A stretch of 64,000 bases of DNA. Origin: Lentimicrobiaceae bacterium. GTDB lineage: Bacteria > Bacteroidota > Bacteroidia > Bacteroidales > UBA4417. The notes under the pieces were generated by a model. The model searched no databases and was not told the DNA's origin. It saw only the letters and a list, made by a program, of their open reading frames with translations. The stretch covers positions 68,961 through 132,960 of the forward strand of contig JAPXLB010000003.1 of the NCBI GenBank assembly GCA_033809755.1, given 5' to 3'. Shown in pieces: positions 548 to 59,835 of this stretch. Within the stretch, counting starts at the first letter, position 1; every line of letters starts with the position of its first letter. The translations under genes and the position numbers were made by a program.

Positions 548-672
548 TAGAAATTAGAAATTAGAAATTAGAATTATCAAGTTTTAACTCTAAACTCGAA
601 ACTCCTTACTCTCCCGAAACTTCGGGATACCCCGTACCACGCAACCCGTAACCCGTAACCCGAACCACCCAT
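548..672. repeat. Intergenic heptamer-periodic block: (AGAAATT)n, (AACTCNN)n, TCCCGAAACTTCGGGA palindrome (612-627), (ACCCGTA)n
   Basis: Read directly: tagaaattagaaattagaaattag; taactctaaactcgaaactcc; ccccgtaccacgcaacccgtaacccgtaacccgaaccaccca. It lies between convergent genes. Confidence 0.8.
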
Positions 673-1211
673 CACTCATCTACAGGTTTTATCATACAGT
701 AACGATTGCAAATAATATCAACTACTTCGGTAGGACTTTCATCAGATAGTTCTATAATTATCTTTGCCTGTGAGTAATAAAATTTTCTTTTTTGATAAAT
801 TTCTTTGTGTTTATCTATTTCGGCGTCTGTATCGTTAAATTTATCAAAAAGCGGTCGCTGTTTTGGCGATTTGTACAGCCTTTTAAATAAAATATCTTCA
901 TCAACATTTAAAAATATAGTAATACCGCTGTTGTTCATTATGTCGATGTTATTATAAAAGCAAGGTGTACCGCCACCAACAGAGCAAACGCCCGAAAAGT
1001 TTTCAGAAACTTCTATCAATAATTGTTGCTCAAGTTCTCTAAAATCTTTCTCCGAAAATTTCTGAAAAAAGGAATTGATGCTATATTTATACTTTTTCTC
1101 AAATTCTTTATCCAAATCTATAAACTCCAATCCAAGGCGCTTAGCCAACTTCCTGCTGACAGTCGATTTGCCTGCACCCATATAACCCAACAAGTAAATA
1201 ATATCGCCCAT
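672..1211 (-). CDS. aroK: Shikimate kinase
   Basis: 179 aa. P-loop GYMGAGKSTVSRKLAKRLGLEFIDLD, and the size is typical of AroK. Confidence 0.9.
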   Translation of the reverse strand: MGDIIYLLGYMGAGKSTVSRKLAKRLGLEFIDLDKEFEKKYKYSINSFFQKFSEKDFRELEQQLLIEVSENFSGVCSVGGGTPCFYNNIDIMNNSGITIFLNVDEDILFKRLYKSPKQRPLFDKFNDTDAEIDKHKEIYQKRKFYYSQAKIIIELSDESPTEVVDIICNRYCMIKPVDE

Positions 1212-1286
1212 AATGATTATATTTCTACAAAATTACAAGTTTTTATAATAAAAATAGCATAAAATACATACTTTTGAAGGAGAATT

Positions 1287-3212
1287 ATGGCACATCCTTT
1301 AGACATACTTAAACAATATTGGGGCTACGACAGTTTTAGAGAGAAACAATTAGAAATAATTGACTCTGTGCTTGCCGGCAACGATACTTTGGCTTTGCTT
1401 CCAACCGGTGGCGGAAAATCTATTTGTTTTCAAGTTCCGGCTCTTATGATGCAAGGTGTTTGTGTTGTTGTTACGCCTCTTATTGCTCTGATGATCGACC
1501 AGGTTAATAATTTAAGGAAACGAAATATTTCGGCTTATGCTATTCATTCGGGACTTAACTATCGCGAAATTGAAAACATCATGTTTTTGTGTAATTCGGG
1601 AGAAGTGAAATTCCTGTATCTGTCGCCAGAACGTTTGGTATCGGAGAAATTTTTATCGGTTTTTAAACAAACAAATGTGACTCTCATCGCTGTTGATGAA
1701 GCTCATTGTATTTCAGAATGGGGTTACGACTTCCGTCCGCCATATCTTAAAATTGCAGATATTCGTCCTTTGTTTCCCGAAGCTCCTGTTATTGCACTCA
1801 CAGCTACTGCAGTTCCTGAAATTGCCGATGATATACAGAAAAAATTACTCTTTAAAAAGAGCAATGTTTTCGTAAAAAGCTTTGTCAGGACTAACTTATC
1901 ATACATTGTTAGAAAAGTTGAAGACAAATATGCTAAAATTGTGCGAATTTGCAATTCTATTAAAGGAACCGGAATAGTTTACGTTAGAAACAGAAGACTT
2001 ACCGTTGAAATTTCTAAATATTTGAACCTAAATAACATTAAAGCCGACTATTACCACGCCGGCTTGAGCACAGACGAACGCAACAGAAAACAAGACGAAT
2101 GGTATAATAACAAAACTCGTGTTATGGTCAGCACCAACGCTTTTGGCATGGGAATTGACAAATCAGACGTTAGGTTTGTTATACACTTCGATATTCCCGA
2201 AAACATTGAAGCATACTATCAAGAAGCCGGTAGAGCCGGCAGAGACGAGAAAAAAGCCTATGCGGTTATATTATATAACAACGAAGATATTGCAAACAGT
2301 ATCAGACTTGTAGAACAATCGTGGCCCAGCATTGATATTATAAAGAATGTATATCAAAAAATTTGCGAATATACTCAAGTAGCTGTCGATACAGAAGTCT
2401 TTGGCTCATTTGATTTCGATTTGGGATTGTTTTGCGAAAAGTATAAACTAAAACCCATAAACGTTTTTAGCGCCGTTAAAATTCTCGAAAGAGAAGGTTA
2501 TATTGCAACTAACGAACCATGGAATAGTTCGTCAAAGCTGCTATTTACCGTCAGCAAAGAAGAGCTATTCGGCTATCAGGAAGCCGACGCCAAAATGGAA
2601 AAACTAATTAAAACAATTTTGCGAATGTACGGTGGTGTGTTTTCTTCATTTGTAAATATCGATGAAAACAAAATTGCGCGAGCTGTCAATATCGACAGAC
2701 CCATAGTTGACAAAATGCTTAAAAAACTTGACACAGACGGAATTATATCGTACCTACCCAAAAAAACAAAGAATCAGCTGTTTTTTACTTCACGAAGAAT
2801 AAACTCAAAGGATATAAACTTAAGCCGCGAATACTACTTCAACAGAAAACAAAATGCAATAGAGAAAAACAAGGCTATGGTTTACTATTTGCAATCGGAA
2901 ACCTGCAGAAGTATGTATTTAGTTTCGTATTTTGGCGAAAAAAAGGCAAAGCCTTGCGGTACTTGCGATTACTGTTTATCAAAAAAAAGAGATAAACAAA
3001 AGGAAAAGGAAATAAGTAAAGAAATTAAAACCAGACTCATAAAATTGCTGAAAAATCAGGAATTGAGTGTGAGAGAAGTGGTAGGTGAAATAAAAGAATA
3101 CTCCGAAGTTGATATACTAAACACAATACAATCGCTGATTGATAAGGGGATATTAATCTCGGATATGAATATCATCAAATACAACAAAAACAAAAAAGCC
3201 CCACGAAAGTAG
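1287..3212 (+). CDS. recQ: RecQ-family ATP-dependent DNA helicase
   Basis: FREKQLEII, LLPTGGGKS (motif I), DEAHCISEWGYDFRP (DEAH box), TNAFGMGIDKSDVRFVIH, YYQEAGRAGRD. Confidence 0.9.
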   Translation: MAHPLDILKQYWGYDSFREKQLEIIDSVLAGNDTLALLPTGGGKSICFQVPALMMQGVCVVVTPLIALMIDQVNNLRKRNISAYAIHSGLNYREIENIMFLCNSGEVKFLYLSPERLVSEKFLSVFKQTNVTLIAVDEAHCISEWGYDFRPPYLKIADIRPLFPEAPVIALTATAVPEIADDIQKKLLFKKSNVFVKSFVRTNLSYIVRKVEDKYAKIVRICNSIKGTGIVYVRNRRLTVEISKYLNLNNIKADYYHAGLSTDERNRKQDEWYNNKTRVMVSTNAFGMGIDKSDVRFVIHFDIPENIEAYYQEAGRAGRDEKKAYAVILYNNEDIANSIRLVEQSWPSIDIIKNVYQKICEYTQVAVDTEVFGSFDFDLGLFCEKYKLKPINVFSAVKILEREGYIATNEPWNSSSKLLFTVSKEELFGYQEADAKMEKLIKTILRMYGGVFSSFVNIDENKIARAVNIDRPIVDKMLKKLDTDGIISYLPKKTKNQLFFTSRRINSKDINLSREYYFNRKQNAIEKNKAMVYYLQSETCRSMYLVSYFGEKKAKPCGTCDYCLSKKRDKQKEKEISKEIKTRLIKLLKNQELSVREVVGEIKEYSEVDILNTIQSLIDKGILISDMNIIKYNKNKKAPRK

Positions 3213-6283: not shown

Positions 6284-6985
6284 ATGGATAATAGCGACAA
6301 TACAGCAAATACTGTAAGGCAAATAGAGATTTTAAAGCAATTTGTAACCGAAAATCGTTACCAAAGGATGTTGAGTATTGTTGAAGAAAGAACTCAATAT
6401 ATGAGTATTGTCTTGGAAAATATTTATCAACCGCACAATACAAGCGCTGTACTTCGCTCCTGCGATTGTTTCGGTATTCAAGATGTTCACGTTATCGAAA
6501 ACGAAAATAAGTACAGCCTAAATAAAGATATTGCCTTAGGCTCATCGAATTGGCTTAATATAATGCGGTATAACAAAGACGAAAACAATACAGTTGAGTG
6601 TCTTGAATTGTTGAAAAGCAAAGGATATCGCCTGGTAGCCACCCTACCCTCGCCTACAGCTACTTCCATATTCGATTTTGATGTATCGGCAGGAAAATTC
6701 GCTTTGCTTATGGGTACGGAACTCACAGGTTTAAGCGATATTGCCTGCAAAATGGCTGACGAAAATATTTATTTACCTATGGTAGGCTTTACCGAAAGCC
6801 TTAATATATCGGTAACCGCTGCTACATTTATGTTTTACCTATCTCAGAAAATCAAAAAACTTGATATAGCTTGGCAGCTAGATGATATTACCAAAAATGA
6901 AGTTTTGCTAAATTGGCTAATAAATTCAGTTAAAAGTGGTAATGAGATATTAAATAGATTTGATGGTGAAGGGTGTTTGGTGTAG
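6284..6985 (+). CDS. SpoU/TrmH-family RNA 2'-O-methyltransferase
   Basis: NTSAVLRSCDCFGIQDVHVI, LLMGTELTGLS and IPMVGFTESLNISVTAA are the three SpoU motifs. Confidence 0.8.
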   Translation: MDNSDNTANTVRQIEILKQFVTENRYQRMLSIVEERTQYMSIVLENIYQPHNTSAVLRSCDCFGIQDVHVIENENKYSLNKDIALGSSNWLNIMRYNKDENNTVECLELLKSKGYRLVATLPSPTATSIFDFDVSAGKFALLMGTELTGLSDIACKMADENIYLPMVGFTESLNISVTAATFMFYLSQKIKKLDIAWQLDDITKNEVLLNWLINSVKSGNEILNRFDGEGCLV

Positions 6986-6986
6986 T

Positions 6987-7200
6987 TTCGAGTATTGAGT
7001 TACGAGTTATGAGTCTCTAAACTACTGATTCAGGACTCTCCCGAAACTTCGGGATAGAACTCAGAACTATCACGAACCACATAGCACTTTGACATTTCGA
7101 CACCTCGGCTACGCTCGGTGGACACTAGCTCAATGAGCGAAGTGCTGCAACTCAGAACTCAGAACTCAGGACTAACCCACACTAATCACCAAATAAATTT
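6987..7200. repeat. Mosaic intergenic repeat: G/T-rich GAGT heptamers, TCCCGAAACTTCGGGA palindrome (7039-7054), R3-like palindromic unit (7083-7146), AGAACTC heptamers
   Basis: Read directly: gtttcgagtattgagttacgagttatgagt ... tcccgaaacttcggga ... aactcagaactcagaactcagg. Confidence 0.8.
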
Positions 7201-7258: not shown

Positions 7259-7690
7259 ATGGGAAAAGGCGATAAAAAAACTAAAAGAGGAAAAATTATA
7301 AAGGGAAGCTACGGTGTAACTCGCAGACGTAAAGCAAAAAAACAACAAGCAATTGCTGAAAAACCTGCCGAAGTTAAAAAAGCAGCAGCTGAAAAAGAAG
7401 TAGAAAAAGTTGTTGAGAAAAAGGAAGTAGCAGAAAAAGCTACTGAGAAAAAAGTTGCGGAGAAAAAAGAAGTAACAGAAAAAGTTACTGAGAAAAAAGA
7501 AGTAACAGAAAAAGCTACTGAGAAAAAAGTAGCAGAAAAAAAAGAAGCAGCGGAGAAAGCTACTGAGAAAAAAGAAGTAACAGAAAAAGCCGCTGAGAAA
7601 AAAGAAGTAGAAAAAGAAACTAAACCTAAGGCTAAAAAAACTGCAACAAAAGAAGAATCAACTGAAGCTGAGAAGAAAGAGGAAGAATAG
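7259..7690 (+). CDS. Ribosomal protein bTHX-like N-terminus fused to a Lys/Glu-rich tandem-repeat tail
   Basis: The N-terminus MGKGDKKTKRGKIIKGSYGVTRRRKAKK resembles 30S protein THX. Residues ~45-120 are repeats of roughly 10 aa (EKATEKKEVT), encoded by ~30-nt DNA repeats at ~7390-7620. TATCTTTG -7 box at 7205-7212. Confidence 0.6.
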   Translation: MGKGDKKTKRGKIIKGSYGVTRRRKAKKQQAIAEKPAEVKKAAAEKEVEKVVEKKEVAEKATEKKVAEKKEVTEKVTEKKEVTEKATEKKVAEKKEAAEKATEKKEVTEKAAEKKEVEKETKPKAKKTATKEESTEAEKKEEE

Positions 7691-14287: not shown

Positions 14288-14324
14288 TAGATATTAGACT
14301 AATATGTTAAATTATGTAATAAAT

Positions 14325-14405
14325 GGTGATGAGTGATGAGTGATGAGTGATGAGTGAGAGGCAAAACTCTAATCACCCACCACCCACCACCCACCACCCA
14401 CCACC
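14325..14405. repeat. Heptamer-arm hairpin: (GGTGATGA-type)n / loop / (CACCCAC-type)n
   Basis: ggtgatgagtgatgagtgatgagtgatgagtgagag-gcaaaa-ctctaatcacccaccacccaccacccaccacccaccacc. The arms pair with A.C mismatches on the + strand, which become U.G wobbles on the - strand. Confidence 0.85.
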
Positions 14406-14435
14406 GAACACCATTAAACAAAAACACACAATCAT

Positions 14436-15708: not shown

Positions 15709-16116
15709 TCACTTAGTTTTATAACCTGTGTTCATAAACTTACCAATTAACGTGGTTTCCTTTATCTCGCCATTCGGCATTATTTTAACTTTTATGCCAT
15801 TGCGTATTATAAATACTTCTTGCCTATAAGGTGTTATAACTCCAACTATACCCTTGCGAGTTTCGTGCGGGTTTAATATCTCGGGTTCATCGCTACTTTT
15901 CGTTTTTTTAGTATATGCTATTCCACAATAATTGTTTTCCACTATTTCACCGGATTTAACCTTAAGTGTAAAAACAGCTGACAAAAGTAAAAATAAAGCT
16001 ATTAATATTGTCAAGTTATCAAAATGTACGCTTATTTTACCTAACCATAAACTTATTACAAATAGTACTAAAAAAAATACAGAATACGCATAATTGTCTA
16101 TGTGTTTAAAATTCAT
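15709..16116 (-). CDS. Two-TM protein of unknown family, paralogue 4 of 4
   Basis: MNFKHIDNY start, two hydrophobic helices, conserved C-terminal domain SGEIVENNY..PEILNPHETRKGI.GV.TPY. Its start overlaps the upstream stop (ATGA). Confidence 0.75.
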   Translation of the reverse strand: MNFKHIDNYAYSVFFLVLFVISLWLGKISVHFDNLTILIALFLLLSAVFTLKVKSGEIVENNYCGIAYTKKTKSSDEPEILNPHETRKGIVGVITPYRQEVFIIRNGIKVKIMPNGEIKETTLIGKFMNTGYKTK

Positions 16117-16541
16117 ATCTTAATTTTTTTAGTGTAACCTATATTTGCTATTTTACCAATAAATGTAGTTTCTTTCACTTTACCCTCTGGCGTTATTATA
16201 GCCTTTATTCCATTGCGAATTTTAAAAACATCAGGACTATACGGAGTTTTTACTCCATCTATACCTTTGCGAGTTTCATGCGGATTTAATATTTCAGGCT
16301 GACAGCTTCCGTCTTCTTTTTTCGTATGTCCTACACCTGAATAATTGTTTTCTACTATTTCGCCGGATTGAGTTTCAGCAGTGTATATAAGTAACAACAT
16401 AGCTATAAATCCTAAGATTGCACTTACATATAAGGTTGTTTTACTGTCAGAAGGAACGAGAAAATATTTCAGTATTAAAATTCCTGAAATAGCCAATAAT
16501 GGCGCTGCTTTTGCATAATTATCAATGTGTTTAAACTTCAT
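16113..16541 (-). CDS. Two-TM protein of unknown family, paralogue 3 of 4
   Basis: Same architecture as its neighbours. 4-nt ATGA overlaps at both ends. Confidence 0.8.
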   Translation of the reverse strand: MKFKHIDNYAKAAPLLAISGILILKYFLVPSDSKTTLYVSAILGFIAMLLLIYTAETQSGEIVENNYSGVGHTKKEDGSCQPEILNPHETRKGIDGVKTPYSPDVFKIRNGIKAIITPEGKVKETTFIGKIANIGYTKKIKI

Positions 16542-16963
16542 ATTTTAAATTTGTTAGTGTAACCTACATTTGCTATTTTACCTAACAAAGTCGTTTCTTC
16601 TACTTTGCCGGTTGGTGTTATTCTCGCTTTTATACCATTACAGATTTTAAATACCTTCTCTGTATTATATGGTGTTTTTACTCCGTCTATACCTTTGCGG
16701 GTTTCGTGTGGCTTCAATATTTCAGGCTGGCAGCTTCCGTCTTCTTTTTTTGTGTAGCCTGTACCCAAGTAATTATTTTCCACGATTTCGCCTGATTTAA
16801 ACCAGTAAGTATATCCCATCAATATTAAAGCAGTTACACATAAAGCCATCCCCACAGAGAAGTACGGCTTAACTCCTAATAGACCAGGAGCAAACATTAT
16901 AATTACTCCTAAAGCTCCTATTATTAGACCTTTTGTATAATTATCAATATGTTTAAACTTCAT
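16538..16963 (-). CDS. Two-TM protein of unknown family, paralogue 2 of 4
   Basis: Same architecture. The last 64 residues are identical to paralogue 1, but the N-terminal TM region is unrelated in sequence. Confidence 0.8.
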   Translation of the reverse strand: MKFKHIDNYTKGLIIGALGVIIMFAPGLLGVKPYFSVGMALCVTALILMGYTYWFKSGEIVENNYLGTGYTKKEDGSCQPEILKPHETRKGIDGVKTPYNTEKVFKICNGIKARITPTGKVEETTLLGKIANVGYTNKFKI

Positions 16964-17379
16964 ATTTTAAATTTGTTAGTGTAACCTACGTTTGCTATTT
17001 TACCTAACAAAGTCGTTTCTTCTACTTTGCCGGTTGGTGTTATTCTCGCTTTTATACCATTACAGATTTTAAATACTTTCTCTGTATTATATGGTGTTTT
17101 TACTCCGTCTATACCTTTACGGGTTTCGTGTGGTTTTAATATTTCGGGTTGGCAGTTTCCGTCTTCTTTTTTCGTATATCCTATACCGGAATAATTATTT
17201 TCTACAATTTCACCGGATTGAAAAAGATAAGCGTATAAAGCAATGATTATAATCAATACAGGTATAATCATAAACGAATACATAAAAACCTTACTTCTAT
17301 TTAGAACTACTATATTACAAAGCCATAATAGACCTAAAATAAATGCTATTGAGTAATTATCAATGTGTTTTAATTTCAT
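16960..17379 (-). CDS. Two-TM protein of unknown family, paralogue 1 of 4
   Basis: MKLKHIDNY start, two TM helices and the conserved C-terminal domain. Confidence 0.8.
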   Translation of the reverse strand: MKLKHIDNYSIAFILGLLWLCNIVVLNRSKVFMYSFMIIPVLIIIIALYAYLFQSGEIVENNYSGIGYTKKEDGNCQPEILKPHETRKGIDGVKTPYNTEKVFKICNGIKARITPTGKVEETTLLGKIANVGYTNKFKI

Positions 17380-17385
17380 GTCTTT

Positions 17386-17469
17386 TTATTTTAACAATCT
17401 GATTATTATAATTGTACCTGCTATTATTAGTACTATTAACGTTAAATTTTTGGTTTTATTATTTTTCAT
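17386..17469 (-). CDS. Candidate 27-codon hydrophobic mini-ORF (MKNNKTKNLTLIVLIIAGTIIIIRLLK)
   Basis: Translated by hand; it is below the ORF-track cutoff. It has one TM-like core flanked by basic residues and ends 6 nt before the first paralogue's ATG. The region is AT-rich, so it could be a chance ORF. Confidence 0.3.
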   Translation of the reverse strand: MKNNKTKNLTLIVLIIAGTIIIIRLLK

Positions 17470-17507
17470 TTTATTTGCTTGTTTATAAATATTTATTTTT
17501 TTTGCAT

Positions 17508-17578
17508 AAACTCTTGTAAGGTTTATGGCGTGTTAAGGCGCCGCTTGAAACAAAGCTATACCTTACAGGGGTTTTTTT
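17508..17578 (+). ncRNA. Candidate structured small RNA, copy 1 (three-stem fold plus U-tract)
   Basis: Outer stem 17511-17522/17560-17571. Inner hairpins GGCG..CGCC and GCTT-gaaaca-AAGC. A run of 7 T at 17572-17578. Promoter-like TTTG (17474-17477) lies 19 nt before TTTTTTTG (17497-17504). Confidence 0.5.
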
Positions 17579-17693
17579 ATTTCATTATGGATAAACAGTA
17601 CTGTATCTTTTGTCCGCTTTTTCTACTCCCTATTGTTAATTTTACGTTTCCTAAATATATTTGGTTATTTATAAAAAATTATTAATTTTGCAT

Positions 17694-17764
17694 AAACTCT
17701 TATGTGGGTTATGGAGTGTTATGGCTCTGCTTGAAACAAAGCTACCCCACATAAGAGTTTTTTT
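17694..17764 (+). ncRNA. Candidate structured small RNA, copy 2
   Basis: Outer stem 17697-17708/17746-17757 has a different sequence from copy 1 but keeps the pairing. The inner hairpin is GGAG..CTCT in place of GGCG..CGCC. A run of 7 T at 17758-17764. TTTG (17660-17663) lies 19 nt before TAATTTTG (17683-17690). Confidence 0.55.
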
Positions 17765-17851
17765 ATTTCAGAAAATTACTCTAAATAAAAAACCCAACTC
17801 TTCTCAGTGTCGGGCTTGTTTTTAATGTTGTTGTCAGATAAATATAAATTC

Positions 17852-17988
17852 GGCTATTAGCTGTTGGCTTTTTTGTGATTGGTGGTCAGTGGTGGTTGAT
17901 GAGTGTCCTGCACAATTCGACCATTCAACACGTAATATTAACCACGTAACACGTAACACGTAACACGCACCCCGCACCACGCAACTCC
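17852..17988. repeat. Mosaic heptamer block: TTAGC/TTGGC and GGTGATT-type modules, then (ACGTAAC)n/CCGCACC modules
   Basis: ggctattagctgttggc..gtgattggtggtcagtggtggttgatgagtg ... cacgtaacacgtaacacgtaacacgcaccccgcaccacgcaac. Confidence 0.8.
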
Positions 17989-18045
17989 AACTTCAAGGTT
18001 TTATCGGACAATAATGATTTTATAAGTTTTTAGAAAAAAAAACGC

Positions 18046-21304: not shown

Positions 21305-21377
21305 TTTTGTTTGAAATAAAACAAACGTCAAAAGTAAACAAAATCTTAATTTGCAAGTGTTTTTATTTATTATATAT

Positions 21378-21452
21378 AGCTTTTGACTATTAGCCATTAG
21401 CTTTTAGCTAAACTAAGAACAGCCAACAGCTAAGGGCTAACGGCTAATTGCC
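21378..21452. repeat. Heptamer-arm hairpin (TTAGC-type arm / GCTAA-type arm)
   Basis: agcttttgactattagccattagcttttagc - loop - gccaacagctaagggctaacggctaattgcc. Confidence 0.8.
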
Positions 21453-21543
21453 AAATAAATATTTTGTATTTTTACAGTCTGATATCTTTTTTAGATAAAA
21501 ATTTATTAAATTTGCAACATAAAAACTAATAGAACTAAAAGAC

Positions 21544-37083: not shown

Positions 37084-37171
37084 CACACAACGTCTTATAT
37101 ACGTAACAAATGTACAACATTCTTAAAAAAAGCAACTCATAATGTTATAAAAAACATATTTATTTAATCAA
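37084..37171 (-). promoter_or_regulatory. Island upstream module, copy C (short)
   Basis: gacacacaacgtcttATATACGTAACAAATGTACAACATTC...CATATTTATTTAATCAA aligns with the gene-proximal part of copies A and B. It lies 61-150 nt upstream of the 178-aa gene. Confidence 0.5.
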
Positions 37172-37445
37172 TAATAAAAATTAATGATACTTAAATGTTT
37201 GGCTCAACAGCAATATTAACTGCCAAATGCGATAAGGGAAGGAAAAGTTTCGTGTATAATAATTATGCTAACGGCTACGTATGTGGAAAGCAGACGATTG
37301 CGAGTTTAAACTAATAAAATCTTTACAATTTTTAAATGAGCTATAACCTCTGAATAACCTACTGAAAGTGCATTTTGTTATATCGCATGTTAAGTGTTAT
37401 TTATATTTTTAATTTATTGTCAATTGACAGTTTAAAATTTATGTA

Positions 37446-38129: not shown

Positions 38130-38176
38130 TCGTTTTTATGTAAATAGCATGTTGATTAATTCCTTAAGTTAAATAG

Positions 38177-38312
38177 CACATAACGAAAACTGGTAGCCAT
38201 AATTGCCGGATTTACAGCACTTTCGCATCAATTTAGCACTTCGGTTCGTTAAAAGCACCAAAGTTTAAGTTGGCACAAAAGCCGGCAATTATCGGCTAAC
38301 ATATGTTATGTG
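38177..38312 (-). repeat. 136-nt imperfect inverted repeat E1, integron attC-like
   Basis: Termini CACATAAC (38177-38184) and GTTATGTG (38305-38312). Inner stem ATAATTGCCGG/CCGGCAATTAT plus TAGCC/GGCTA, with one bulged base (38293). Central region of ~70 nt. It starts 22 nt after the upstream gene's stop and ends 47 nt before the next ATG. Confidence 0.5.
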
Positions 38313-38334
38313 TATTTAATTATTTATCAATATA

Positions 38335-39375: not shown

Positions 39376-39411
39376 ATTATTTATTTATTTGATTATCATT
39401 ATTTTTTATTA

Positions 39412-39547
39412 CACATAACAGTTTTCAGCTATACGCAGGCAGGACTTTTTACCACTAAACTTCCTAAATAGTGCTGAACTTTAAATTTACTACTTTCCTG
39501 TCCTACGGAGCACGAAACTCCTACTAGCGTATAGCTGATGTTATGCC
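39412..39547 (-). repeat. 136-nt imperfect inverted repeat E2, integron attC-like
   Basis: Termini CACATAAC (39412-39419) and GTTATGCC (39540-39547). 12-bp stem TCAGCTATACGC/GCGTATAGCTGA (39425-39436/39527-39538) with asymmetric spacers (5 nt versus 1 nt). Branch hairpin GGAG-cacgaaa-CTCC. It ends 36 nt before the next ATG. Confidence 0.5.
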
Positions 39548-39610
39548 TTCGCACTTCTTTTTTAATCGTGTCAGCTTTTGTCATTTAACATCTATTTTGG
39601 CACATAGGAA

Positions 39611-42600: not shown

Positions 42601-43408
42601 TTAAAGTAGAGGATACATTGTTTCTTACTATTCCACGAAAATTACCTTCTGTATCTATTATTAGTGCTTTAGAAAAAAATCTGTCAGCCTCTTCAGGAGG
42701 AAACGTTTTTGCTGATGCAATAATGAAAGCAATTGCTTCATTTTTTGTAGAAGCTTTAATTCCTTTAATTGTAGGTTCTCCTTGTAATGCTGACAACAAT
42801 AAGTCCTTTTCATATTCTCTGCCTGCAATTATACTTTCAGGTGAAAGAATTAATCCTTTTGGCCCGATTGACCATTCTTCCCAAAATTCATCAGCAGTCA
42901 TTATTCCATCAAATGGATATGTTCCAACTCCATCTTGCGAAGCAAACCAACGTGAAACTGATTGTGCATTATCAAGCCATTGTTCTAAGTCCATTGAATC
43001 ATATACTTTAACATCTTTCCAATGATTTTCGGCTTTTTTTGCTGCAATCCATTCGTCTTTTTTTGTCCAAAGTCTGGGTGTTACAAATATAAAAACAGAA
43101 TCGCTAGGTGTAAAACCTATTGGATTCTTTTTTCTTTTATCATAATCATCATCAGCTTTTCCTTTACAATCAGACGAAGTACCAAACTCCCACAAAGAAG
43201 TTCCTTGAGGTACATAAGCCGTTTCGGTTTCACAAATGACAATTCCATCCCAACCTCCGATATAGGTCGCACTACCTGAAGGAAGATTTGCTTTTGTGCT
43301 TGCAGGCGTTGTTGCTCTTACTAATCTTGAAATTAAATAAGGCAAAACAGCCTTTGAAAAGGTTGTGTCTGCCCATCTTTCGAGATTATTTCTGGTAACA
43401 AGTTTCAT
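39611..43408 (-). CDS. 1265-aa protein of unknown function (island gene 2)
   Basis: Long uninterrupted ORF with no Walker A or helicase motif. The ~170-aa N-terminal globular region (GGWDGIV...SLWEFGTSSDCKGK) is followed by more than 1000 aa that look helical-repeat-like. Antisense ORFs inside it were rejected. Confidence 0.8.
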   Translation of the reverse strand: MKLVTRNNLERWADTTFSKAVLPYLISRLVRATTPASTKANLPSGSATYIGGWDGIVICETETAYVPQGTSLWEFGTSSDCKGKADDDYDKRKKNPIGFTPSDSVFIFVTPRLWTKKDEWIAAKKAENHWKDVKVYDSMDLEQWLDNAQSVSRWFASQDGVGTYPFDGIMTADEFWEEWSIGPKGLILSPESIIAGREYEKDLLLSALQGEPTIKGIKASTKNEAIAFIIASAKTFPPEEADRFFSKALIIDTEGNFRGIVRNNVSSTLNLIPRFDEAQPLYLAVSKGNHVLVPLGADDNFNQEIITLPTIDRDGQIKSLIESGISREYAEKLSKESGRNITILKKLLGFPYYKAKWIEKENIREIIPALLLGRWNETFVGDIELIEKLSEQKYSDYLVTLNKWRNFEESPIIQIGKTWRLTSPLDLWTNLSYQLTTKDFQNIKECFSMAFKNGNPVIEPEEKNSFAAYFNKKHKYSNWSREGLIQSLILIGLLNDVKIPNLDNPQSWVDNIIFDLLYNASGEIWISVDNELPLISEASPESFLKAVKNSLAKKQPEIMDMFKEEDGFLHKTSHHTGLLWALENLAWLPEYLRDVSLILLKLSRLDPGGSLSNRPLNSVTEIFKPWHFQTLASFDERMEILKFVTEKEKELGWNLLIRMLPDHHGIAHPTHKMRWRMFDKNTNLTYTYKEIWNTHSSVIEMLINLFDNDEEKFSQLIKEIPNLSPKDRKRVLDWADEVYPNIKQEKFSTWETIRGILNHHRSHPDTDWALPESELVRLENLYNKLQPTDTIHKYIWLFNEHWPKFPEGFKYELNKSGELYDQQQKRIDEARKTAVTVFLQELGLNATLELRKQVKEFWLLGGALAGIITNKEEVITVCECLYDDKNLIGFAHNFIYRKSIIENFDWIKSLFKELQEKKFSNKALSNVLIPLNQNQQLWNYVASLDEEIQNEYWQNINPHFYHITDEEKTIGIEMLLKYKRFFSAIDIASHLANVISSNLLSEMLKKAATEEASETPRFIGYEIERIFEELDKRTDIEKSTLIHLEWLYLPILDSYGARRSPKILEEELANNPDFFIEVLKCIYIPKDKTLLEKEREGISDEAIQNRAKQAYHLLHSWKKIPGMKEDNFIDETILKNWVTKTRFLAENVSRLEAADNEIGKILAQYPENSNFWPEEKIFQIIEEINTDELKGGYSSAMFNKRGMSTRGAFDGGDIERGKAAYFEKLSNGFKNKYPNVAEIFKRMQQGYLADAKRMDEEAERNRLEY

Positions 43409-43475
43409 ATTTTAATTGCGATTTCTTTTGTTTCTCTTTATGCTTCTTGTCGGTGGTATCTTCTTTTAGAGTGAG

Positions 43476-43672
43476 GCATAACGCCCCATATACGTAACAA
43501 ATGTACAACATTCGTACATATAAAACACAATTTGAATAACAAAAATACATTTATTTATCCAACAAACAAATTTTATAACACCAAATATTATTTTTGTACC
43601 TAATGGCAAAATCCGACAAGTAAAAGAAGCGTTTTATAAATAAGCTTTAAGGGTATATCTCTTTTGAAGTAT
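43476..43672 (-). promoter_or_regulatory. Island upstream module, copy A
   Basis: Aligns by eye with 44878-45048 over ~170 nt. On the - strand it contains TATTTTTG (a TAnnTTTG-type box) and the ATGTAC-gaatgtt-GTACAT hairpin. On the + strand it has TATTTTTG followed by the mini-ORF ATGGCAAAATCCGACAAGTAA. Confidence 0.55.
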
Positions 43673-43767
43673 AAGCCTGCTAACAGACGACAATACGCAA
43701 CGTAAGGATTTTGCGGTGACGAACCAATTATCAGTAACAAACCTTGCTGGCTAGCAATGCGTTTAAC

Positions 43768-44814
43768 CTACCAATAACACTCCCATGGTGTATAACAGCA
43801 CCTTATGCCCAGCTTTTTTATTATCCTTCCGTTATAATAAGTCAAATAATTTTCGTCTGCAATTGATTTGTTCTTGATTTTCCAATAATTTTTGAGTCTA
43901 TTTCCAAGTGAAGAAACGGCAACTTTACATCGAATATTACTCATTTCCTTTCCCCAATGAGTTCCATGATGTGGTAATATCACCATATCCCAATATGAAT
44001 TGTTTGAAACAGATAAATTATATTCCAATGCATTGTCTATCTCATTTGCCTCCAAATCACCTAAAAACAATAGCTGATTATTACAATATGCTAATGATAT
44101 TCTATTTGCAATTCCTCTTAATTCATCATTTAAATTTTTAATATGCTTCAATCTTTCATTACGCTGTTCAGAATCAATTAAATTTATTGTTCCTTTCTCT
44201 GTTTGCTCCGACTCAAAATTAAATTCTTCTTCTTTATCTTGATAGAAAGAATTATCTAATGTCTTATATATTTTTTGTAAAATGTCATCTTTCTGTAATT
44301 CTTCATTAAAAAGCTTTATTACTTTTTCTACCGATTCGGTAAAGGAATTGTCTATCTCTCTTGGAGGCCAAATTACTTGAAATGATTTCTGACCCAAATT
44401 AATAAAATCACCCTGGGAAACAGGAATAACATTGAACCTTCTATTATAGCTGATTTTTGAGATTAAATTAATAAAATCATACTCCATACTTCCTGAATCA
44501 TTACCCAACAAGTAAAAATTAACCGTCTGGAAAGCTTTTAGCAATGCAGACCTATTACTAAATTTTGGAAGTCTAGGGAAATAGACGGTATCTATATGGG
44601 CACACATCCCCGAATGTGCAATATTCACTAAACCACTATAATGGTCAGAATGGAAATGTGACAACACGAACGAAAATGGAAAGGAATGACAAAATCTATA
44701 TAATAATCCCTTATTCACGTCGTGCTGGGAACCAAAGTCAGTTACAAGTCTTTCATTTTTTAATCTAAAATCAACAAACAGACCATCTCCAATGTCATTT
44801 ATTATTACAATCAT
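43768..44814 (-). CDS. Metallo-beta-lactamase-fold hydrolase, ComEC-like subtype (island gene 1)
   Basis: HxHxDH motif SHFHSDHYSG, then FLGDLE and ILPHHGTHWG, which resembles the ComEC/Rec2 MBL domain. There are no membrane segments. Confidence 0.75.
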   Translation of the reverse strand: MIVIINDIGDGLFVDFRLKNERLVTDFGSQHDVNKGLLYRFCHSFPFSFVLSHFHSDHYSGLVNIAHSGMCAHIDTVYFPRLPKFSNRSALLKAFQTVNFYLLGNDSGSMEYDFINLISKISYNRRFNVIPVSQGDFINLGQKSFQVIWPPREIDNSFTESVEKVIKLFNEELQKDDILQKIYKTLDNSFYQDKEEEFNFESEQTEKGTINLIDSEQRNERLKHIKNLNDELRGIANRISLAYCNNQLLFLGDLEANEIDNALEYNLSVSNNSYWDMVILPHHGTHWGKEMSNIRCKVAVSSLGNRLKNYWKIKNKSIADENYLTYYNGRIIKKLGIRCCYTPWECYW

Positions 44815-44860
44815 AATGCAATTTTTAATATTTTATTTTCAAACTTTCTTTTCTTAATTA

Positions 44861-45048
44861 CTTACAACAATTATTTTCACGTATCAAATGTACAACATTT
44901 TTATAAAAACAAGTAAAAACGCAAATTTATTTATCCAACAAACAAATCAAATAACACCAAATGTTATTTTTGTAGTTAATGGCAAAATCCGACAAGAAAA
45001 AGAAACGTTTTATAAATAAGCTTTAAGGGTATATCTCTTTTGGAATAT
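44861..45048 (-). promoter_or_regulatory. Island upstream module, copy B
   Basis: See copy A. The + strand mini-ORF is intact here (44979-45026, MAKSDKKKKRFINKL). Confidence 0.55.
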
Positions 45049-45049: not shown

Positions 45050-45117
45050 GTTAGCTATTGGGCATTGGCTATTGGCTATTAGCCATTGGCTATTGGCTGA
45101 TGCGTGTTGCGGGTTAG
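45050..45117. repeat. G/T-rich heptamer block (ATTGGCT type) plus GCGTGTTGCGGGTTAG
   Basis: gttagctattgggcattggctattggctattagccattggctattggctgatgcgtgttgcgggttag. Confidence 0.8.
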
Positions 45118-45122
45118 ATTTT

Positions 45123-45337
45123 ACTCATTTAAAATCCTTTTTACGCAGAATATGTATAAAAGAAACGTTAAAAATTTCTGAATCCCTGTAAGAAATTTAG
45201 TTTCTTTTATACGGTTTTTATTGCCATAGGGCAATAAAAAATTCCTTGTAAAAAGTGTCTTTTCTTTTGTTTCGTTTTCTTTGGACAAGCAAAGAAAATG
45301 AAAAAAACAAAATTGAAACCGTAAAAGTTTATTGATT
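45123..45337. repeat. Dispersed structured repeat R2, copy b
   Basis: Near-identical by eye to 33347-33562. The tetraloop hairpin has loop ATAG where copy a has GAAA. Confidence 0.8.
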
Positions 45338-45454
45338 GGAAAAAAGCCTAATTTGGATAACTGTTAGCTGGTATGAGGTGCGGGTTAGTTCTGAGTCGGG
45401 AGTATTGAGTTGAAACATTTCGGTCGCTGAGCGCCGAAGCCCAATGTATTATCT

Positions 45455-45519
45455 ATTTTCGGCATTTCGATACACCGATATTTCACTTCGTTCAATATCG
45501 GCACTCAATGACCGAAAAT
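45455..45519. repeat. Palindromic unit R3, copy a
   Basis: ATTTTCGG...CCGAAAAT outer stem and CCGATATT/AATATCGG inner stem. Shares CATTTCGATAC and CACTCAATGACCGAAAAT with 56028-56091. Confidence 0.7.
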
Positions 45520-45543
45520 ATAAAACTCGTAACTAACACCGAC

Positions 45544-45620
45544 CAATCACCAATCACCAATCACCAATCACCAATCACCAATCACCAATCACCACTCACC
45601 ACTCACCACTCACCACCACC
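45544..45620. repeat. C/A-rich heptamer array: (CAATCAC) about 7 times, then (CACTCAC) 3 times
   Basis: caatcaccaatcaccaatcacc...actcaccactcaccactcaccaccaccc. It abuts the 3' end of osmC, and heptamer-like sequence (caccaatcac) continues a few codons into the gene. Confidence 0.85.
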
Positions 45621-45622
45621 CA

Positions 45623-46039
45623 CTATTCACCAATCACTATCTCATGCGTAATTTTCATTACCTGCTTGTAAACATGATTTACCCCACAATACTTTTCTAA
45701 CGATAAGTTTACGGCTTTTTCAACTTTTTCCTTATCAATATTATCGCCTTTCAGCTTGTATATGATGTGCATAGCAGTGTAGTGCTTTGGATGTTCTTCG
45801 GTCATTTCGGCTTCAATAACTACGTCAAATTCGTCGAATTGTACTTTCATTTTGTTTAAAATAGATACAACGTCCATTCCTGTACATCCAGCCAATGCTG
45901 TTATCATCAACGGTTTTGGAAGTACACCGCTCTCTTCTCCGCCACTTTCAACCTTCGCATCCATAATTACATCGTGATTGTTAACTTTCGATAGGAATTT
46001 CATCTTTCCTTGCCATTTAGTTTCAATAGTCTGTTTCAT
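45623..46039 (-). CDS. OsmC/Ohr-family peroxiredoxin-like protein
   Basis: PKPLMITALAGCTGMDVVSIL and LEKYCGV. I prefer the start MKQTIE (46039) over the hydrophobic 19-codon extension. Confidence 0.8.
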   Translation of the reverse strand: MKQTIETKWQGKMKFLSKVNNHDVIMDAKVESGGEESGVLPKPLMITALAGCTGMDVVSILNKMKVQFDEFDVVIEAEMTEEHPKHYTAMHIIYKLKGDNIDKEKVEKAVNLSLEKYCGVNHVYKQVMKITHEIVIGE

Positions 46040-46197
46040 AATTAGTAATATTAGTATGTTAGTACAAAAGTATAAAATTGTTTTGCAAAAGTACAAAATA
46101 TCTATATATCTATATGTTTTTATATTTAGATTTGAAACTTTTTAAAATTTTTCCAATTATCAAACTTTGCAGGTTATAAAAATGTTATATATTTGCA

Positions 46198-46355
46198 AGC
46201 GAAAATTGGTTCTACAAAAGATTAAAAGGGAATGCCGTGAGAATCGGCAACAGTACCCGCTGCTGTGAGTTTTAAAAGCATTTTTATTAAGCCACTGTAT
46301 TTTTATGGGAAGGCAAAAATGTACGAAACAAGTCAGAAGACCTACCATTTTCAAA
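46198..46355 (+). promoter_or_regulatory. Cobalamin (B12) riboswitch
   Basis: AAGGGAATGCCGTGAGAATCGGCA, CCCGCTGCTGTGA, GCCACTG, GGGAAGGC and the B12 box AGTCAGAAGACCTACC (46331-46346). P1 is aaaattggt/accatttt. Promoter TTTG 46166-46169 and TATATTTG 46188-46195. Confidence 0.85.
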
Positions 46356-46487
46356 TTACATAATACGACTTCCGGGATTAGAGGTCTGAGATGTGTCGAT
46401 ATTTCAGTATATTACCTCCATCCATTTCGTATTTTGTTATAAATAGATATTGAAGTATTTATTAATGAACAATTAAAATATAACAAA

Positions 46488-53373: not shown

Positions 53374-53395
53374 CGTCTTTGGGTGATCGGTAAAA

Positions 53396-53465
53396 GTTCT
53401 GAGTTCTGAGTTCTGAGTTTTGAGTATCTCAACTCGAAACTCTTAACTCAACACTCGTAACTAAC
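53396..53465. repeat. Heptamer-arm hairpin: (GTTCTGA)n / (AACTCNN)n
   Basis: gttctgagttctgagttctgagttttgagt-atctc-aactcgaaactcttaactcaacactcgtaac. The GAG/CTC triplets pair every 7 nt. It lies between convergent genes. Confidence 0.85.
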
Positions 53466-53466
53466 C

Positions 53467-55633: not shown

Positions 55634-55665
55634 ATTGGCTTTTGGCTGTTAGCTGTTGGCTTTTG
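55634..55665. repeat. G/T-rich heptamer module (TTGGC/TTAGC type)
   Basis: ttggcttttggctgttagctgttggcttttgc. Confidence 0.75.
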
Positions 55666-55706
55666 CGTCCCTAAATCTCGAGATTGTTGTAAAATTTATC
55701 TTCATA

Positions 55707-55996
55707 GGTTTTATTCTTTTTTATATGTTCTTTTGTCTTAATACAAAAGAACCAAAAAATCAAGGCTGACATTTCTTTTCTGAATTGCGTTCTCATAAAT
55801 CCTAAGTTCGTGCGGGTGATCTCCTCGCAAGCTCGGAGCTTCCCTTTCTCACTAAGGATTTATTTCGAACTACATTCAGAAGAAATGTATGCCATCCTCT
55901 TAAAGCAAAATTTCCGGCTATTGTAATTTCTTCTCACAACAGACTATTAATGCTAAAAGAGTGAAGTTTATTTATTGCAAAAAAACTTAACAAAGT
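55707..55996 (+). repeat. Dispersed structured repeat R1, copy b (partly degenerate stems)
   Basis: Aligns with 33011-33302. The central CTCCGAG/CTCGGAG and GCGGG/CCCGC stems carry mismatches in this copy. Confidence 0.8.
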
Positions 55997-56027
55997 CGCT
56001 GAAACTCAGAACTCGATAACACCCTCC

Positions 56028-56091
56028 ATTTTCGGCATTTCGATACAGCAATATTCGCTTAACTCAATATCGACACTCAATGACCGAAAAT
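56028..56091. repeat. Palindromic unit R3, copy b
   Basis: attttcggcatttcgataca...cactcaatgaccgaaaat. Confidence 0.7.
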
Positions 56092-56095
56092 TTCG

Positions 56096-56148
56096 AAACG
56101 CGAACCACGTAACCCGTACCCCGCAACCCGCAACACGCACCGCCACCT
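56096..56148. repeat. C/A-rich heptamer block (ACCCGTA/CCGCAAC type)
   Basis: aaacgcgaaccacgtaacccgtaccccgcaacccgcaacacgcaccgccacc, followed by ttcaagg as at 17991. Confidence 0.8.
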
Positions 56149-56207
56149 TCAAGGCTTTATATAACTGTATGATAATTGCATTAATTAAATTTTCTTGTTA
56201 AAACTTG

Positions 56208-56272: not shown

Positions 56273-56277
56273 ATTTT

Positions 56278-57967: not shown

Positions 57968-57992
57968 CAAAATGTGATTTTTAGTTAATTTT

Positions 57993-58026
57993 AAAGCTGC
58001 CTCAAATTTTGGGGCAGCTTTTTTTC
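57993..58026 (+). terminator. Intrinsic terminator after the peroxiredoxin gene
   Basis: AAGCTGCC-tcaaattttgg-GGCAGCTT followed by TTTTTTT. Confidence 0.8.
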
Positions 58027-58114
58027 AATTTTTAGAATTTATCAACTTAATAAAAAGGTAATGTAATAAATTGCGGATATTTCATAAATTTGCACTGCGA
58101 AAAGCAAGAACCTT

Positions 58115-58981: not shown

Positions 58982-58992
58982 ATTAACCTTAT

Positions 58993-59751
58993 ATGAAGAT
59001 AATATTTTTAGGCACAGGAACATCGGTAGGAACGCCAGTAATAGCTTGCAATTGCGAGGTTTGCAAAAGCAACGATAAGCGAGATTTTAGATTCAGGACT
59101 TCACTTTATATTGAACACGAAAACGCTAAAATCGTAATTGATTGCGGTCCCGATTTCCGATTGCAAATGCTTAATAACAATATTAAAGACATTGATGCTG
59201 TTTTCTTCACACACAAGCACCGCGATCATACGGCAGGCATCGACGATATAAGACCTTTCAACTTTATGCTAAACAAAGCCGTTGATGTTATTGCCAACAA
59301 CGAAACAATAGAAGTGATAAAGGCGAGCAACAAATATATTTTTGATAAAATATACAAAGATGCTCCTTGTTTAAATATTATTGAAATTGAAAATAAAGAA
59401 TTTGAATACAAAGGCATCAAAATCAACCCTATTAGCGTACTGCATGCCAACGAAACTGTTTTCGGATACCGAATTGCCGGTCTCACCTACATAACCGACG
59501 CTAATTACATTTCGGAAACCGAATTGCAAAAAGCTAAAAACAGCGATGTTTTGATACTAAATTCATTGGCACGATACAAACATCGTTCGCATTTTTCGCT
59601 TGACGAATCATTGCAAATTGTTGAGCAGGTAAAACCTAAAATTGCTTACCTGACGCACATTAGCCACGGTATGGGATTACACGCTCAAACACAGTCGGAA
59701 TTACCGGAAAATGTGTTTTTAGCTTACGATGGATTGATAATTGAAATTTAG
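58993..59751 (+). CDS. MBL-fold metallo-hydrolase (PhnP-like)
   Basis: IIFLGTGTSVGTP, CNCEVC zinc knuckle and FFTHKHRDHTAGIDD (HxHxDH variant). Confidence 0.75.
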   Translation: MKIIFLGTGTSVGTPVIACNCEVCKSNDKRDFRFRTSLYIEHENAKIVIDCGPDFRLQMLNNNIKDIDAVFFTHKHRDHTAGIDDIRPFNFMLNKAVDVIANNETIEVIKASNKYIFDKIYKDAPCLNIIEIENKEFEYKGIKINPISVLHANETVFGYRIAGLTYITDANYISETELQKAKNSDVLILNSLARYKHRSHFSLDESLQIVEQVKPKIAYLTHISHGMGLHAQTQSELPENVFLAYDGLIIEI

Positions 59752-59835
59752 TTTCGAGTTCTGAGTATTGAGTTCCGAGTGTCAAAACTCCTAACTCATA
59801 ACTCTCCCGAAACTTCGGGACAGAACTCAAAACTA
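59751..59835. repeat. Heptamer-arm hairpin plus TCCCGAAACTTCGGGA palindrome (59805-59820)
   Basis: gtttcgagttctgagtattgagttccgagtg-tcaa-aactcctaactcataactc tcccgaaacttcggga cagaactcaaaac. Confidence 0.85.

Follow-up and report, generated by a model that had tools for sequence, protein, structure and literature searches.

The intergenic DNA of a 64,000-nt stretch of the 202-kb contig JAPXLB010000003.1 (positions 68,961 to 132,960; hereafter the window), from an uncultured Bacteroidales/Lentimicrobiaceae metagenome-assembled genome of 35% GC, is interspersed with short tandem arrays of 7-nt units that are built into modules with a G/T-rich arm followed by a C/A-rich arm. All ten window modules that contain both forms have this order (M1 to M10; Table 1), the left part being keto-rich and the right part amino-rich. 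The window is thus a member of the known heptameric class of simple sequence repeats (SSRs), also described as short tandemly repeated repetitive (STRR) sequences, with convergent pairing of the arrays and in a Bacteroidales lineage. The best joint explanation, to which we assign a probability of roughly 0.6, is that the modules are STRR-class SSR arrays with slippage dynamics, that their G-first pairs were born by fold-back, and that they are mostly tolerated DNA.

Heptamer arrays in the intergenic DNA

Period-7 runs cover 641 of the 7,774 intergenic nucleotides (29 gaps), whereas 100 dinucleotide-preserving shuffles give 30 ± 28 nt and 115 nt at most. Periods 5, 6 and 8–12 stay at background level in the same gaps. 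Coding DNA is nearly free of period-7 runs (21 of 55,854 nt). An earlier reading of the window, made from the letters alone (the sequence-only reading), had staked its case on such a 7-nt enrichment over composition-matched shuffles, and the enrichment is there.

Tandem Repeats Finder (TRF) places the starts of period-7 arrays at 548, 586, 631, 7149, 14326, 14374, 17927, 21387, 21425, 32890, 45054, 45542, 53395, 55635, 56111 and 59782. Examples are TAGAAAT ×3.7 at 548, CCCGTAA at 631, GTGATGA ×4.6 at 14326, CACCCAC ×4.6 at 14374, ACCAATC ×10.6 at 45542 and AGTTCTG ×4.4 at 53395. Direct reading of the sequence sorts the units into GAGTTNN/NNAACTC, GGTGATG/CATCACC-type, TTRGCNN/NNGCYAA, ACGYAAC-type and TAGAAAT families. 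With TRF and direct reading together, every array listed in the sequence-only reading was recovered at its place, and its description of the arrays as STRR-like heptamers of a few families is borne out. It had also held that nearly every longer gap carries such arrays; many gaps do, but the share is about half, with strict arrays in 9 of the 21 gaps of at least 100 nt, in two short convergent gaps and, in degenerate form, at 36045. The arrays form about 12 dispersed intergenic loci within the 64 kb, and the gaps inside the variable 36–45 kb region are without them.

Tandem 7-nt units in excess, their dispersal over intergenic loci and their whole-unit variation between strains are the marks of the heptanucleotide SSR/STRR class. 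The units (GAGTTNN, GGTGATG, TTRGCNN, ACGYAAC and TAGAAAT) are not those that we take to be the original STRR sequences, and the host is a member of the Bacteroidales rather than a cyanobacterium. The loci are not CRISPR arrays: their units are 7 nt long and contiguous, and repeats of about 24–48 nt with unique spacers are absent.

The G-rich arm comes first

G–C skew is positive on the left in nine of the ten modules and negative on the right in all ten. The sequence-only reading had noted that the G/T-rich arm lies 5′ of the C/A-rich arm wherever both forms occur, which holds, but it had interpreted this as a fixed polarity of the + strand, which does not: reverse-complementing [G/T arm][C/A arm] returns a module of just that form. 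Either strand thus shows one and the same order, which by construction is independent of the orientation of the flanking genes and cannot track the replichore. The real feature is an intrinsic arm order, with the G-rich strands converging on the centre of the module. A test of arm order against replichore or GC skew was rejected on the logic of this invariance; the cumulative GC skew of the window is monotonic, with no switch.

As an independent test, metagenome contigs were scanned for AGTTNNGAGTTNNGAGTTNNGAGT on either strand, a search that leaves the position of the partner array unbiased. The scan gave 120 loci (31–68% GC). Read on the GAGTT strand, about 21 modules have their AACTC array downstream, and a single module has it upstream. 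Of all neighbouring period-7 arrays with opposite GC skew, 53 pairs run G-then-C and 9 run C-then-G, or 19 versus 6 without the GAGT family. A strict set, restricted to reverse-complementary consensus units and with duplicates removed (57 modules on 45 contigs), contains 45 G-first, 4 C-first and 8 neutral modules (p = 8e-10), with G-first contigs ranging from 0.34 to 0.67 in GC. Counted by consensus unit, the same set gives 32 G-first versus 4 C-first over 42 units. The rule is described better by GC skew than by keto skew. Intergenic DNA outside the arrays is not GC-skewed with respect to genes and has only an excess of A over T before start codons; the polarity thus belongs to the arrays, and background composition is ruled out as its cause.

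In reverse-complementary heptamer pairs of unrelated metagenomic contigs, G-first order thus outnumbers C-first order about tenfold, an asymmetry that any mechanism or function must explain. We did not find the generality of this order across unit families and phyla described in the literature that we looked at. Two unrelated metagenome contigs, L201 (GC 0.60) and L167 (GC 0.61), each carry at least five G-first hairpin modules of different families within 10–15 kb, so that the density of heptamer pairs is strongly genome-specific outside the Bacteroidota too.

The rule is established for pairs only. Lone arrays point away from the nearest open reading frame (ORF) in 72 cases versus 31 (32 versus 12 in the strict set), a signal on which we did not rely, because stop and start codons within G/T-rich arrays distort crudely called ORF ends. 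The preference is gone once arrays within 15 nt of a stop are set aside, the remaining lone arrays showing no bias towards the sense strand (39 versus 40; the test is distorted for pairs, whose proximal arms are filtered out).

Arrays gain and lose units and are exchanged between strains

The GldG protein of the window has its nearest matches among proteins of uncultured Bacteroidales and Lentimicrobiaceae metagenome-assembled genomes. The window was compared with syntenic loci of close strains (L103, L105, L109, L110, L111, L232 and L238) and of two distant relatives (L240 and L241, with GldG identities of 61% and 56%). The arrays are not assembly artefacts, since related strains that were assembled independently have them too, either unchanged or with other unit numbers. 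The gap between gldG and the DUF4340 gene (M3) holds GTGATGA and CACCCAC units in numbers of 4+4, 3+1 or 7+3 depending on the strain, and the arms therefore vary independently, by whole units. Clean indels inside arrays measure 7 or 21 nt. L109 has one extra TAACACG unit in M4, and the C arm of M7 has about 5 units in L232 (which also has a different filler), 10 in the window and 12 in L238. In M9 the unit number differs between L232 and L238 in four of the five concentric arms, the GAGTTAC arm alone being identical; M10 is almost identical in L232. The arrays are hypermutable through gain and loss of whole units, arm by arm, as slipped-strand mispairing would give.

Families are also swapped or nested at fixed sites across strains. 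At the SpoU gap (M2), L105 has a simple GGTGATG/CATCACT module only, and in the window remnants of outer arms of the GGTGATG/CATCACT type enclose a nested GAGTT/AACTC module together with a palindrome and a filler. At the M5 site (21398), L103 and L109 have a different nested module. At the M8 site (53374–53466), the module of L238 is of the GGTGATT/CACCCAT type and equals that of the window in total length (93 nt). M9 in L232 and L238 is without the R2 and R3 fillers described below and has the mirrored families [TTGGC][GGTGATG][GAGTTAC] followed by [AGAACTC][CACCAAT..]. Comparing the same intergenic sites in related genomes, a check proposed in the sequence-only reading, has thus revealed unit-number change, module swap and nesting. 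The two distant relatives have 14–15 period-7 runs per 21.7 kb, including runs downstream of gldG, and none of period 8 or 9. Concentric multi-family nesting with strain-level turnover is again something that we did not find described in the literature looked at.

Arrays of this kind would suit strain typing in the lineage, and they systematically fragment short-read assemblies. Five short-read (Logan) contigs (L102, L104, L106, L107 and L108) stop at their 3′ ends inside the GTGATGA array downstream of gldG. The annotated start of a polysaccharide-synthesis (flippase-type) ORF (19844–21397) falls within the TTAGC-type arm of M5, and the protein from this ORF is 517, 503 or 486 aa long across strains. 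Unit changes in M5 could shift the start or frame of the gene, making phase variation possible.

Table 1 Heptamer modules and the lone array of the window, with their parts
Feature	Position	Context	Composition
M1	527–672	convergent gap, stop to stop	TTAGC remnant 527–546; TAGAAAT ×3.7 548–576; AACTCNN array 582–608; palindrome CTCTCCCGAAACTTCGGGA 609–627; CCCGTAA/ACGCAAC array 628–672
M2	6960–7195	nested; outer G arm inside SpoU C-terminus	outer G arm GGTGAAG.. 6960–6983; GAGTTNN arm 6984–7017; AACTC units 7018–7035; palindrome 7036–7054; AACTC arm 7055–7084; R3-like filler 7085–7145; AACTCAG ×3.6 7146–7176; outer C arm CTAACCCACACTAATCACC 7177–7195
M3	14322–14413	gldG to DUF4340 gene	GTGATGA ×4.6; 12-nt centre; CACCCAC ×4.6
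M4	17852–17990	3′ region of formate–tetrahydrofolate ligase gene (− strand)	TTAGC/TTGGC and GGTGATT-type G/T arrays 17852–17905; non-complementary ACGTAAC/ACGCACC arrays 17927–17990
M5	21378–21452	divergent gap	TTAGC-type arm 21378–21411; GCTAA/GCCAA-type arm 21418–21452
M6	32889–33645	divergent gap	TTAGC/TTGGC array 32889–32964; inverted palindrome CCCGAAGTTTCGG at 32973 (32973–32985); R2 about 32973–33307; R1 33342–33569; second TTGGC array 33593–33625; short ACGCAAC/ACGTAAA arm 33626–33645
Lone degenerate G/T array	36045–36080	directly 3′ of guaA stop, edge of variable 36–45 kb region	GGTGGTT/GGTGAAT type
M7	45050–45640		TTGGCTA ×6.4 45050–45100; GCGTGTTGCGGGTTAG 45102–45117; R1 copy 45118–45345; G arms GGTGCGGGTTAGTTCTGAGT.. 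45368–45412; R3 hairpin filler 45413–45524; AACTCGTAACTAAC with CCAATCA ×7 and CCACTCA ×3 45525–45640
M8	53380–53466	fills convergent gap	outer GGGTGATCGGT remnant; AGTTCTG ×4.4; AACTCNN arm
M9	55634–56150	divergent gap	TTGGCTN ×4.4 55634–55666; R2 copy 55669–56002; AACTC units 56004–56025; R3 copy 56026–56095; ACGTAAC/CCGCAAC array 56096–56150
M10	59750–59842	fills convergent gap	GAGTTNN arm 59750–59783; AACTCNN arm 59784–59801; palindrome 59802–59820; AACTC units 59821–59842

Hairpins, gene position and the question of selection

Folding energies of the modules were compared with those of shuffles on both strands (z given as a pair). Modules with arms of a single family fold far better than their shuffles (53374–53466, M8, z −5.1/−5.3; 59745–59845, M10, z −7.4/−6.5; 14300–14420, M3, z −4.3/−11.1; 21370–21460, M5, z −4.1/−5.6). 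Two regions do not, 17848–17992 (M4, z 0.0/0.7) and 527–672 (M1, z −2.2/−2.0), although both are still ordered G/T then C/A. The claim of the sequence-only reading that array pairs make long imperfect hairpins therefore applies to most pairs, with z from −4.1 to −11.1 in four folded modules, but not to M4 and M1; the hairpin is common among modules and is not their defining trait. Its usual form is a series of 5-bp helices with 2×2 internal loops between them. Two transitions per unit separate the arms of M3, so that RNA from the + strand, which is the transcribed one, has A·C mismatches and RNA from the − strand has G·U pairs, and the predicted folds are worth −29.6 and −61.9 kcal/mol, respectively. 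This strand imbalance does not look like selection on an mRNA hairpin.

The modules take up varied positions relative to genes. Three convergent gaps are filled stop to stop by a module and contain no other terminator candidate (531–671, 53374–53466 and 59752–59835). M3 lies in an operon spacer, 24 nt before the start codon, and M4 lies between a stop codon and what direct reading identifies as a real intrinsic terminator. Some modules are in divergent gaps (M5, M6 and M9), and some are upstream of Bacteroidetes-type TAnnTTTG promoter boxes, recognised by eye.

Canonical intrinsic terminators, with a G+C-rich stem and a U-tract, were considered and rejected for the modules, from a consensus scan of the first 20 kb and direct reading elsewhere. 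The scan, which covers M1 to M4, detected no array hairpin apart from a 5-pair chance match at 17851, and direct reading of M3, M8 and M10 showed no T-runs after the right arms. Known RNA families were ruled out by Rfam: at the gathering threshold the only matches in the window are a cobalamin riboswitch and a tRNA, and permissive scans of the R1/R2 region and of 17380–17860 gave chance-level matches only.

The modules might nevertheless be selected structural elements, serving as bidirectional insulators or terminators or as hairpins that stabilise 3′ ends, with the G-first order masking a C-rich, Rho-attracting arm once it is transcribed. We regard this as unlikely. It would account for the three convergent gaps filled from stop to stop, for strong folding z-scores on both strands, and for the retention of modules at the same gaps despite changes of family, even at 56–61% protein identity; Xanthomonas repeats, moreover, cluster at stop codons (PMC4692102). 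Yet the hairpins lack U-tracts and are missed by the terminator scan of the first 20 kb, two modules do not fold, and the hairpin is almost lost in some strains (3+1 units). Modules also occur upstream of promoters in divergent gaps, a real terminator follows M4, and the even split of lone arrays beyond 15 nt from a stop speaks against array orientation being under strong Rho-based selection.

Small repeats within the modules and the question of mobility

A 16-nt palindrome, TCCCGAAACTTCGGGA (TCCCGAA(A/G)(C/T)TTCGGGA), recurs in M1, M2, M6 and M10. L238 has three extra copies at the M7 site (18882, 19163 and 19191 of its locus), inside heptamer arms where the window has none. Two polymorphic insertions carry flanking duplications, one of 7 nt (a duplicated AGTTCTG) and one of 5 nt, both of them ambiguous inside a tandem array. 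The 19-nt form, CTCTCCCGAAACTTCGGGA, was found at 101 loci in a scan of a genome collection, in Flavobacterium, Pedobacter, Chitinophagaceae, Armatimonadota and others; almost none of these loci has heptamer flanks, and the repeat contexts are unrelated. The palindrome is thus a widespread small hairpin motif that behaves as a tiny independent mobile element.

Three further repeats, R1 (M6 and M7), R2 (33048–33307 in M6, matching 55743–56002 in M9) and R3 (M7 and M9, partly M2), are hairpin-rich dispersed fillers within the heptamer modules, with copies 85–94% identical and no Rfam match. They may be miniature inverted-repeat transposable element (MITE)-like elements or structured RNAs, as candidates only. 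The suggestion of the sequence-only reading that the arms are insertion targets has gained support, since the palindrome, the fillers and a whole inner module are each present or absent between strains.

These movements raise the possibility that the modules themselves are non-autonomous elements, similar to MITEs or to REPINs (hairpin-forming doublets of repetitive extragenic palindromic (REP) sequences), with heptamers as terminal inverted repeats, a transposase supplied from elsewhere and a preference for insertion into module loops that would produce nesting. The palindrome and R1–R3 clearly move, one palindrome insertion is flanked by the duplicated AGTTCTG heptamer, and the inner module of M2 is present or absent between strains. 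In addition, a 94-nt unit occurs at two loci (M10 and 6983–7076 in M2, 80% identity), and a third locus shares 42 nt of it. An element of this kind is hard to reconcile with arms that change length unit by unit and independently, with the lack of a consistent module length and of target-site duplications around whole modules, and with arms that may come from non-complementary families. The Pfam lists of the 64-kb window and the fetched strain loci contain no transposase gene. Moreover, no fewer than 42 unrelated heptamer consensus sequences show the G-first layout, on contigs of 34–67% GC, which is more than a single transposase family could account for. We consider it improbable that the modules are mobile in this sense.

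How G-first pairs might arise

In the explanation that combines slippage with fold-back, slipped-strand mispairing would add or remove whole 7-nt units, each arm separately. A nascent G/T-rich array may fold back through G·T pairs and prime copying of itself by an intramolecular template switch, so that a complementary, C/A-rich arm would come to lie 3′ of it, and after the birth of the pair the two arms would drift separately by slippage. One-step copying of a composite array would also yield a mirrored family order. The centre and arms of a module are hot spots for insertion of the palindrome and of the MITE-like R1–R3. The modules may be largely tolerated extragenic DNA comparable to REP sequences and bacterial interspersed mosaic elements (BIMEs), and those that are transcribed, after stop codons or in operon spacers, may yield stable hairpins in the RNA, which might act as buffers of 3′ ends or as insulators of neighbouring genes. 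In favour of fold-back, when 359 arrays were folded as single-stranded DNA, the G-rich strand folded better on itself in 174 and its complement in 22.

Several observations weigh against this explanation. The gap in self-folding energy is small (−0.027 versus −0.017 kcal/mol per nt), and no two strains were found of which one has a solitary G array where the other has a newly formed, mirror-symmetric pair. At their variable positions the arms do not mirror each other (M8, L229), so any fold-back origin must be old relative to slippage. Non-complementary arms (17852–17990; L127) still run G then C, which fold-back alone does not predict. The twice-occurring 94-nt GAGTT/AACTC-plus-palindrome unit resembles an element dispersed by mobility or gene conversion rather than a product of independent birth, and modules that stay in place at given gaps while their sequences turn over could be functional, which the tolerated-DNA view underrates.

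Alternatively, the modules could be scars of break repair, in which 3′ ends were extended with G-rich heptamers by a telomerase-like or slipping polymerase and then joined, in the manner of a head-to-head telomere fusion. Such an origin fits the universality of the G-first order, the independence of the arms in unit number and variant pattern, the pairs of different families that keep G then C, and the foreign DNA at module centres. A candidate enzyme was not identified, and there is no sign of unit addition at the end that faces the centre; outer arms vary in unit number as readily as inner ones, for which ordinary slippage suffices, and many families are not especially G-rich, TTAGC being near neutral. 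We therefore judge this scenario very unlikely.

Somewhat more broadly, and only tentatively, the G-first order, near-universal over bacterial phyla and dozens of unrelated units, may reflect an undescribed process at the DNA level in which palindromes are built from 3′ ends that point at the module centre. We find this doubtful. The process could be G/T-biased fold-back template switching or reiterative 3′-end extension during break repair. If true, heptamer modules would be the genomic trace of a repair pathway and not of selection, and genomes with the pathway active could be recognised by the density of their modules.

Other features of the window and related strains

The region from guaA to an OsmC-family gene (36100–45000) is a variable slot that encodes a protein with an Mrr_cat restriction-endonuclease domain (38335–39375), a 1265-aa protein and others without Pfam matches. 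The same slot holds a ResIII/RE_endonuc gene in L232 and a gene for a 917-aa protein without Pfam matches in L238, and it is probably a defence island. The window GuaA is the sole member of its 90% identity cluster. The strain loci cover the slot from its OsmC side, and the placement of this 9-kb island between matched arms, raised as a possibility in the sequence-only reading, is conjectural. Duplicated non-coding stretches of 81–92% identity lie upstream of island genes (37074–37125 matching 43465–43516, and 43549–43672 matching 44925–45048). They contain ATATACGTAACAAATGTACAACATT and have a related stretch in L232, and they are candidates for common promoter or regulatory regions.

At 15709–17379, four small paralogous ORFs (135–142 aa, no Pfam match) follow one another in tandem with a period of about 420 nt. 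L109 has two copies only, together with an insertion of three HTH-domain genes and a gene for a 328-aa protein. Upstream of the cluster, an element of about 139 nt is present in two copies that are 77% identical (17446–17584 and 17632–17770); each ends in a stem-loop and then a T-run (GCATAAACTCTT...GGGGTTTTTTT), has no Rfam match, and is a candidate small RNA or attenuator.

A lysine-rich protein of 143 aa (133–136 aa in other strains) with weak similarity to HC2 (histone H1-like) and Thx is encoded at 7259–7690; its gene is built of coding repeats of 15, 30, 45 and 75 nt, which account for the non-heptamer TRF rows at 7376–7615. The cobalamin riboswitch (46190–46363; 113 bits) lies upstream of the gene for a 1273-aa DUF4465/Por secretion-tail protein. 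The gap between the AhpC and FAD-synthetase genes is only 147 nt long in the window (57968–58114); in L232 (4179–6629) it holds about 2.3 kb with three additional ORFs, whose products (258, 368 and 62 aa) have no Pfam match.

Comparison with known systems

Heptamer repeats have been known since 1990 (Mazel 1990), and their origin and role are still open. A Nostoc study, too, treats the role as open. In many prokaryotes, heptanucleotides form the largest class of long SSRs, and polymerase-footprint slippage has been put forward as their origin (Mrazek 2007, summarised in PMC4679880). The window shares with the cyanobacterial STRRs and other heptameric long SSRs the 7-nt unit, the many intergenic loci, the several families per genome and the copy-number polymorphism. 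It differs in unit sequences and phylum and in that pairing is the rule, whereas only a few heptamer arrays are paired in Nostoc (PMC4692102).

The sequence-only reading knew of no equivalent description for the Bacteroidota, but one exists. Intergenic heptamer repeats and 'assemblages of heptamer repeats' were reported in five Bacteroidetes, namely Flexibacter, Paludibacter, Gramella, Aequorivita and Elizabethkingia (MacGregor 2015, PMC4679880). These repeats are missing at the same gap in close relatives, and assemblies break in them (PMC4679880). As in the window, they are direct intergenic heptamers with several families per gap. Unlike here, one unit (TAACTGA) was followed, mostly as single arrays just upstream of start codons, with one inverted case only and no arm-order rule given. 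Tandem TAACTGA units are absent from both strands of the window.

The closest parallel for the pairing also contradicts that claim of novelty. Two Xanthomonas genomes contain 70 and 75 convergent GGGAATC pairs, with one array per strand (Rehm et al. 2015, PMC4692102). Those arrays are often at or overlapping stop codons and show no leading- or lagging-strand preference, and close species share their type (single array or pair) although array length and sequence vary (PMC4692102). The likeness extends to the intergenic location, the variable unit number and the two close arrays on opposite strands with converging G-rich strands, an arrangement seen in all ten window modules. Xanthomonas, a gammaproteobacterium of 65% GC, has one dominant G3 family capable of forming G-quadruplexes, whereas the window has at least five families at 35% GC, mostly without G3 runs, that are nested concentrically and interrupted by small repeats. 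CCC/GGG at 7-nt spacing occurs in only three window arrays (645, 14376 and 56113) and in none of the GAGTT, TTAGC and TAGAAAT families. The minus strand of 14374–14405, (GGGTGGT)×4, is a canonical G-quadruplex motif and the sole window array that closely resembles the Xanthomonas G-quadruplex-type heptamers.

The insertion behaviour of the palindrome TCCCGAAACTTCGGGA has a possible counterpart in the small dispersed repeats (SDRs) of Nostoc, mobile repeats of about 20 nt that are reportedly inserted inside hairpins and tandem heptamer repeats; sequence and phylum are different, and we treat the similarity as a lead only.

REP, BIME and REPIN sequences resemble the modules in being extragenic, hairpin-forming, dispersed and targets of insertion, with possible roles in mRNA 3′-end stability. 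They differ in having no 7-nt periodicity and no unit-wise change of length. REPs are described as fixed palindromes of 20–40 nt with a conserved GTAG/CGTC tag (PMC3733652), and they are mobilised by REP-associated tyrosine transposases (RAYTs; PMC3116915). The window arms are variable in length and, on reading, have no GTAG/CGTC tag, and no RAYT (IS200-like) transposase gene appears in the Pfam lists of the window or the fetched strain loci. To these known systems the window adds a heptamer-rich Bacteroidales lineage represented by several strains, in which the turnover of arrays can be watched site by site.

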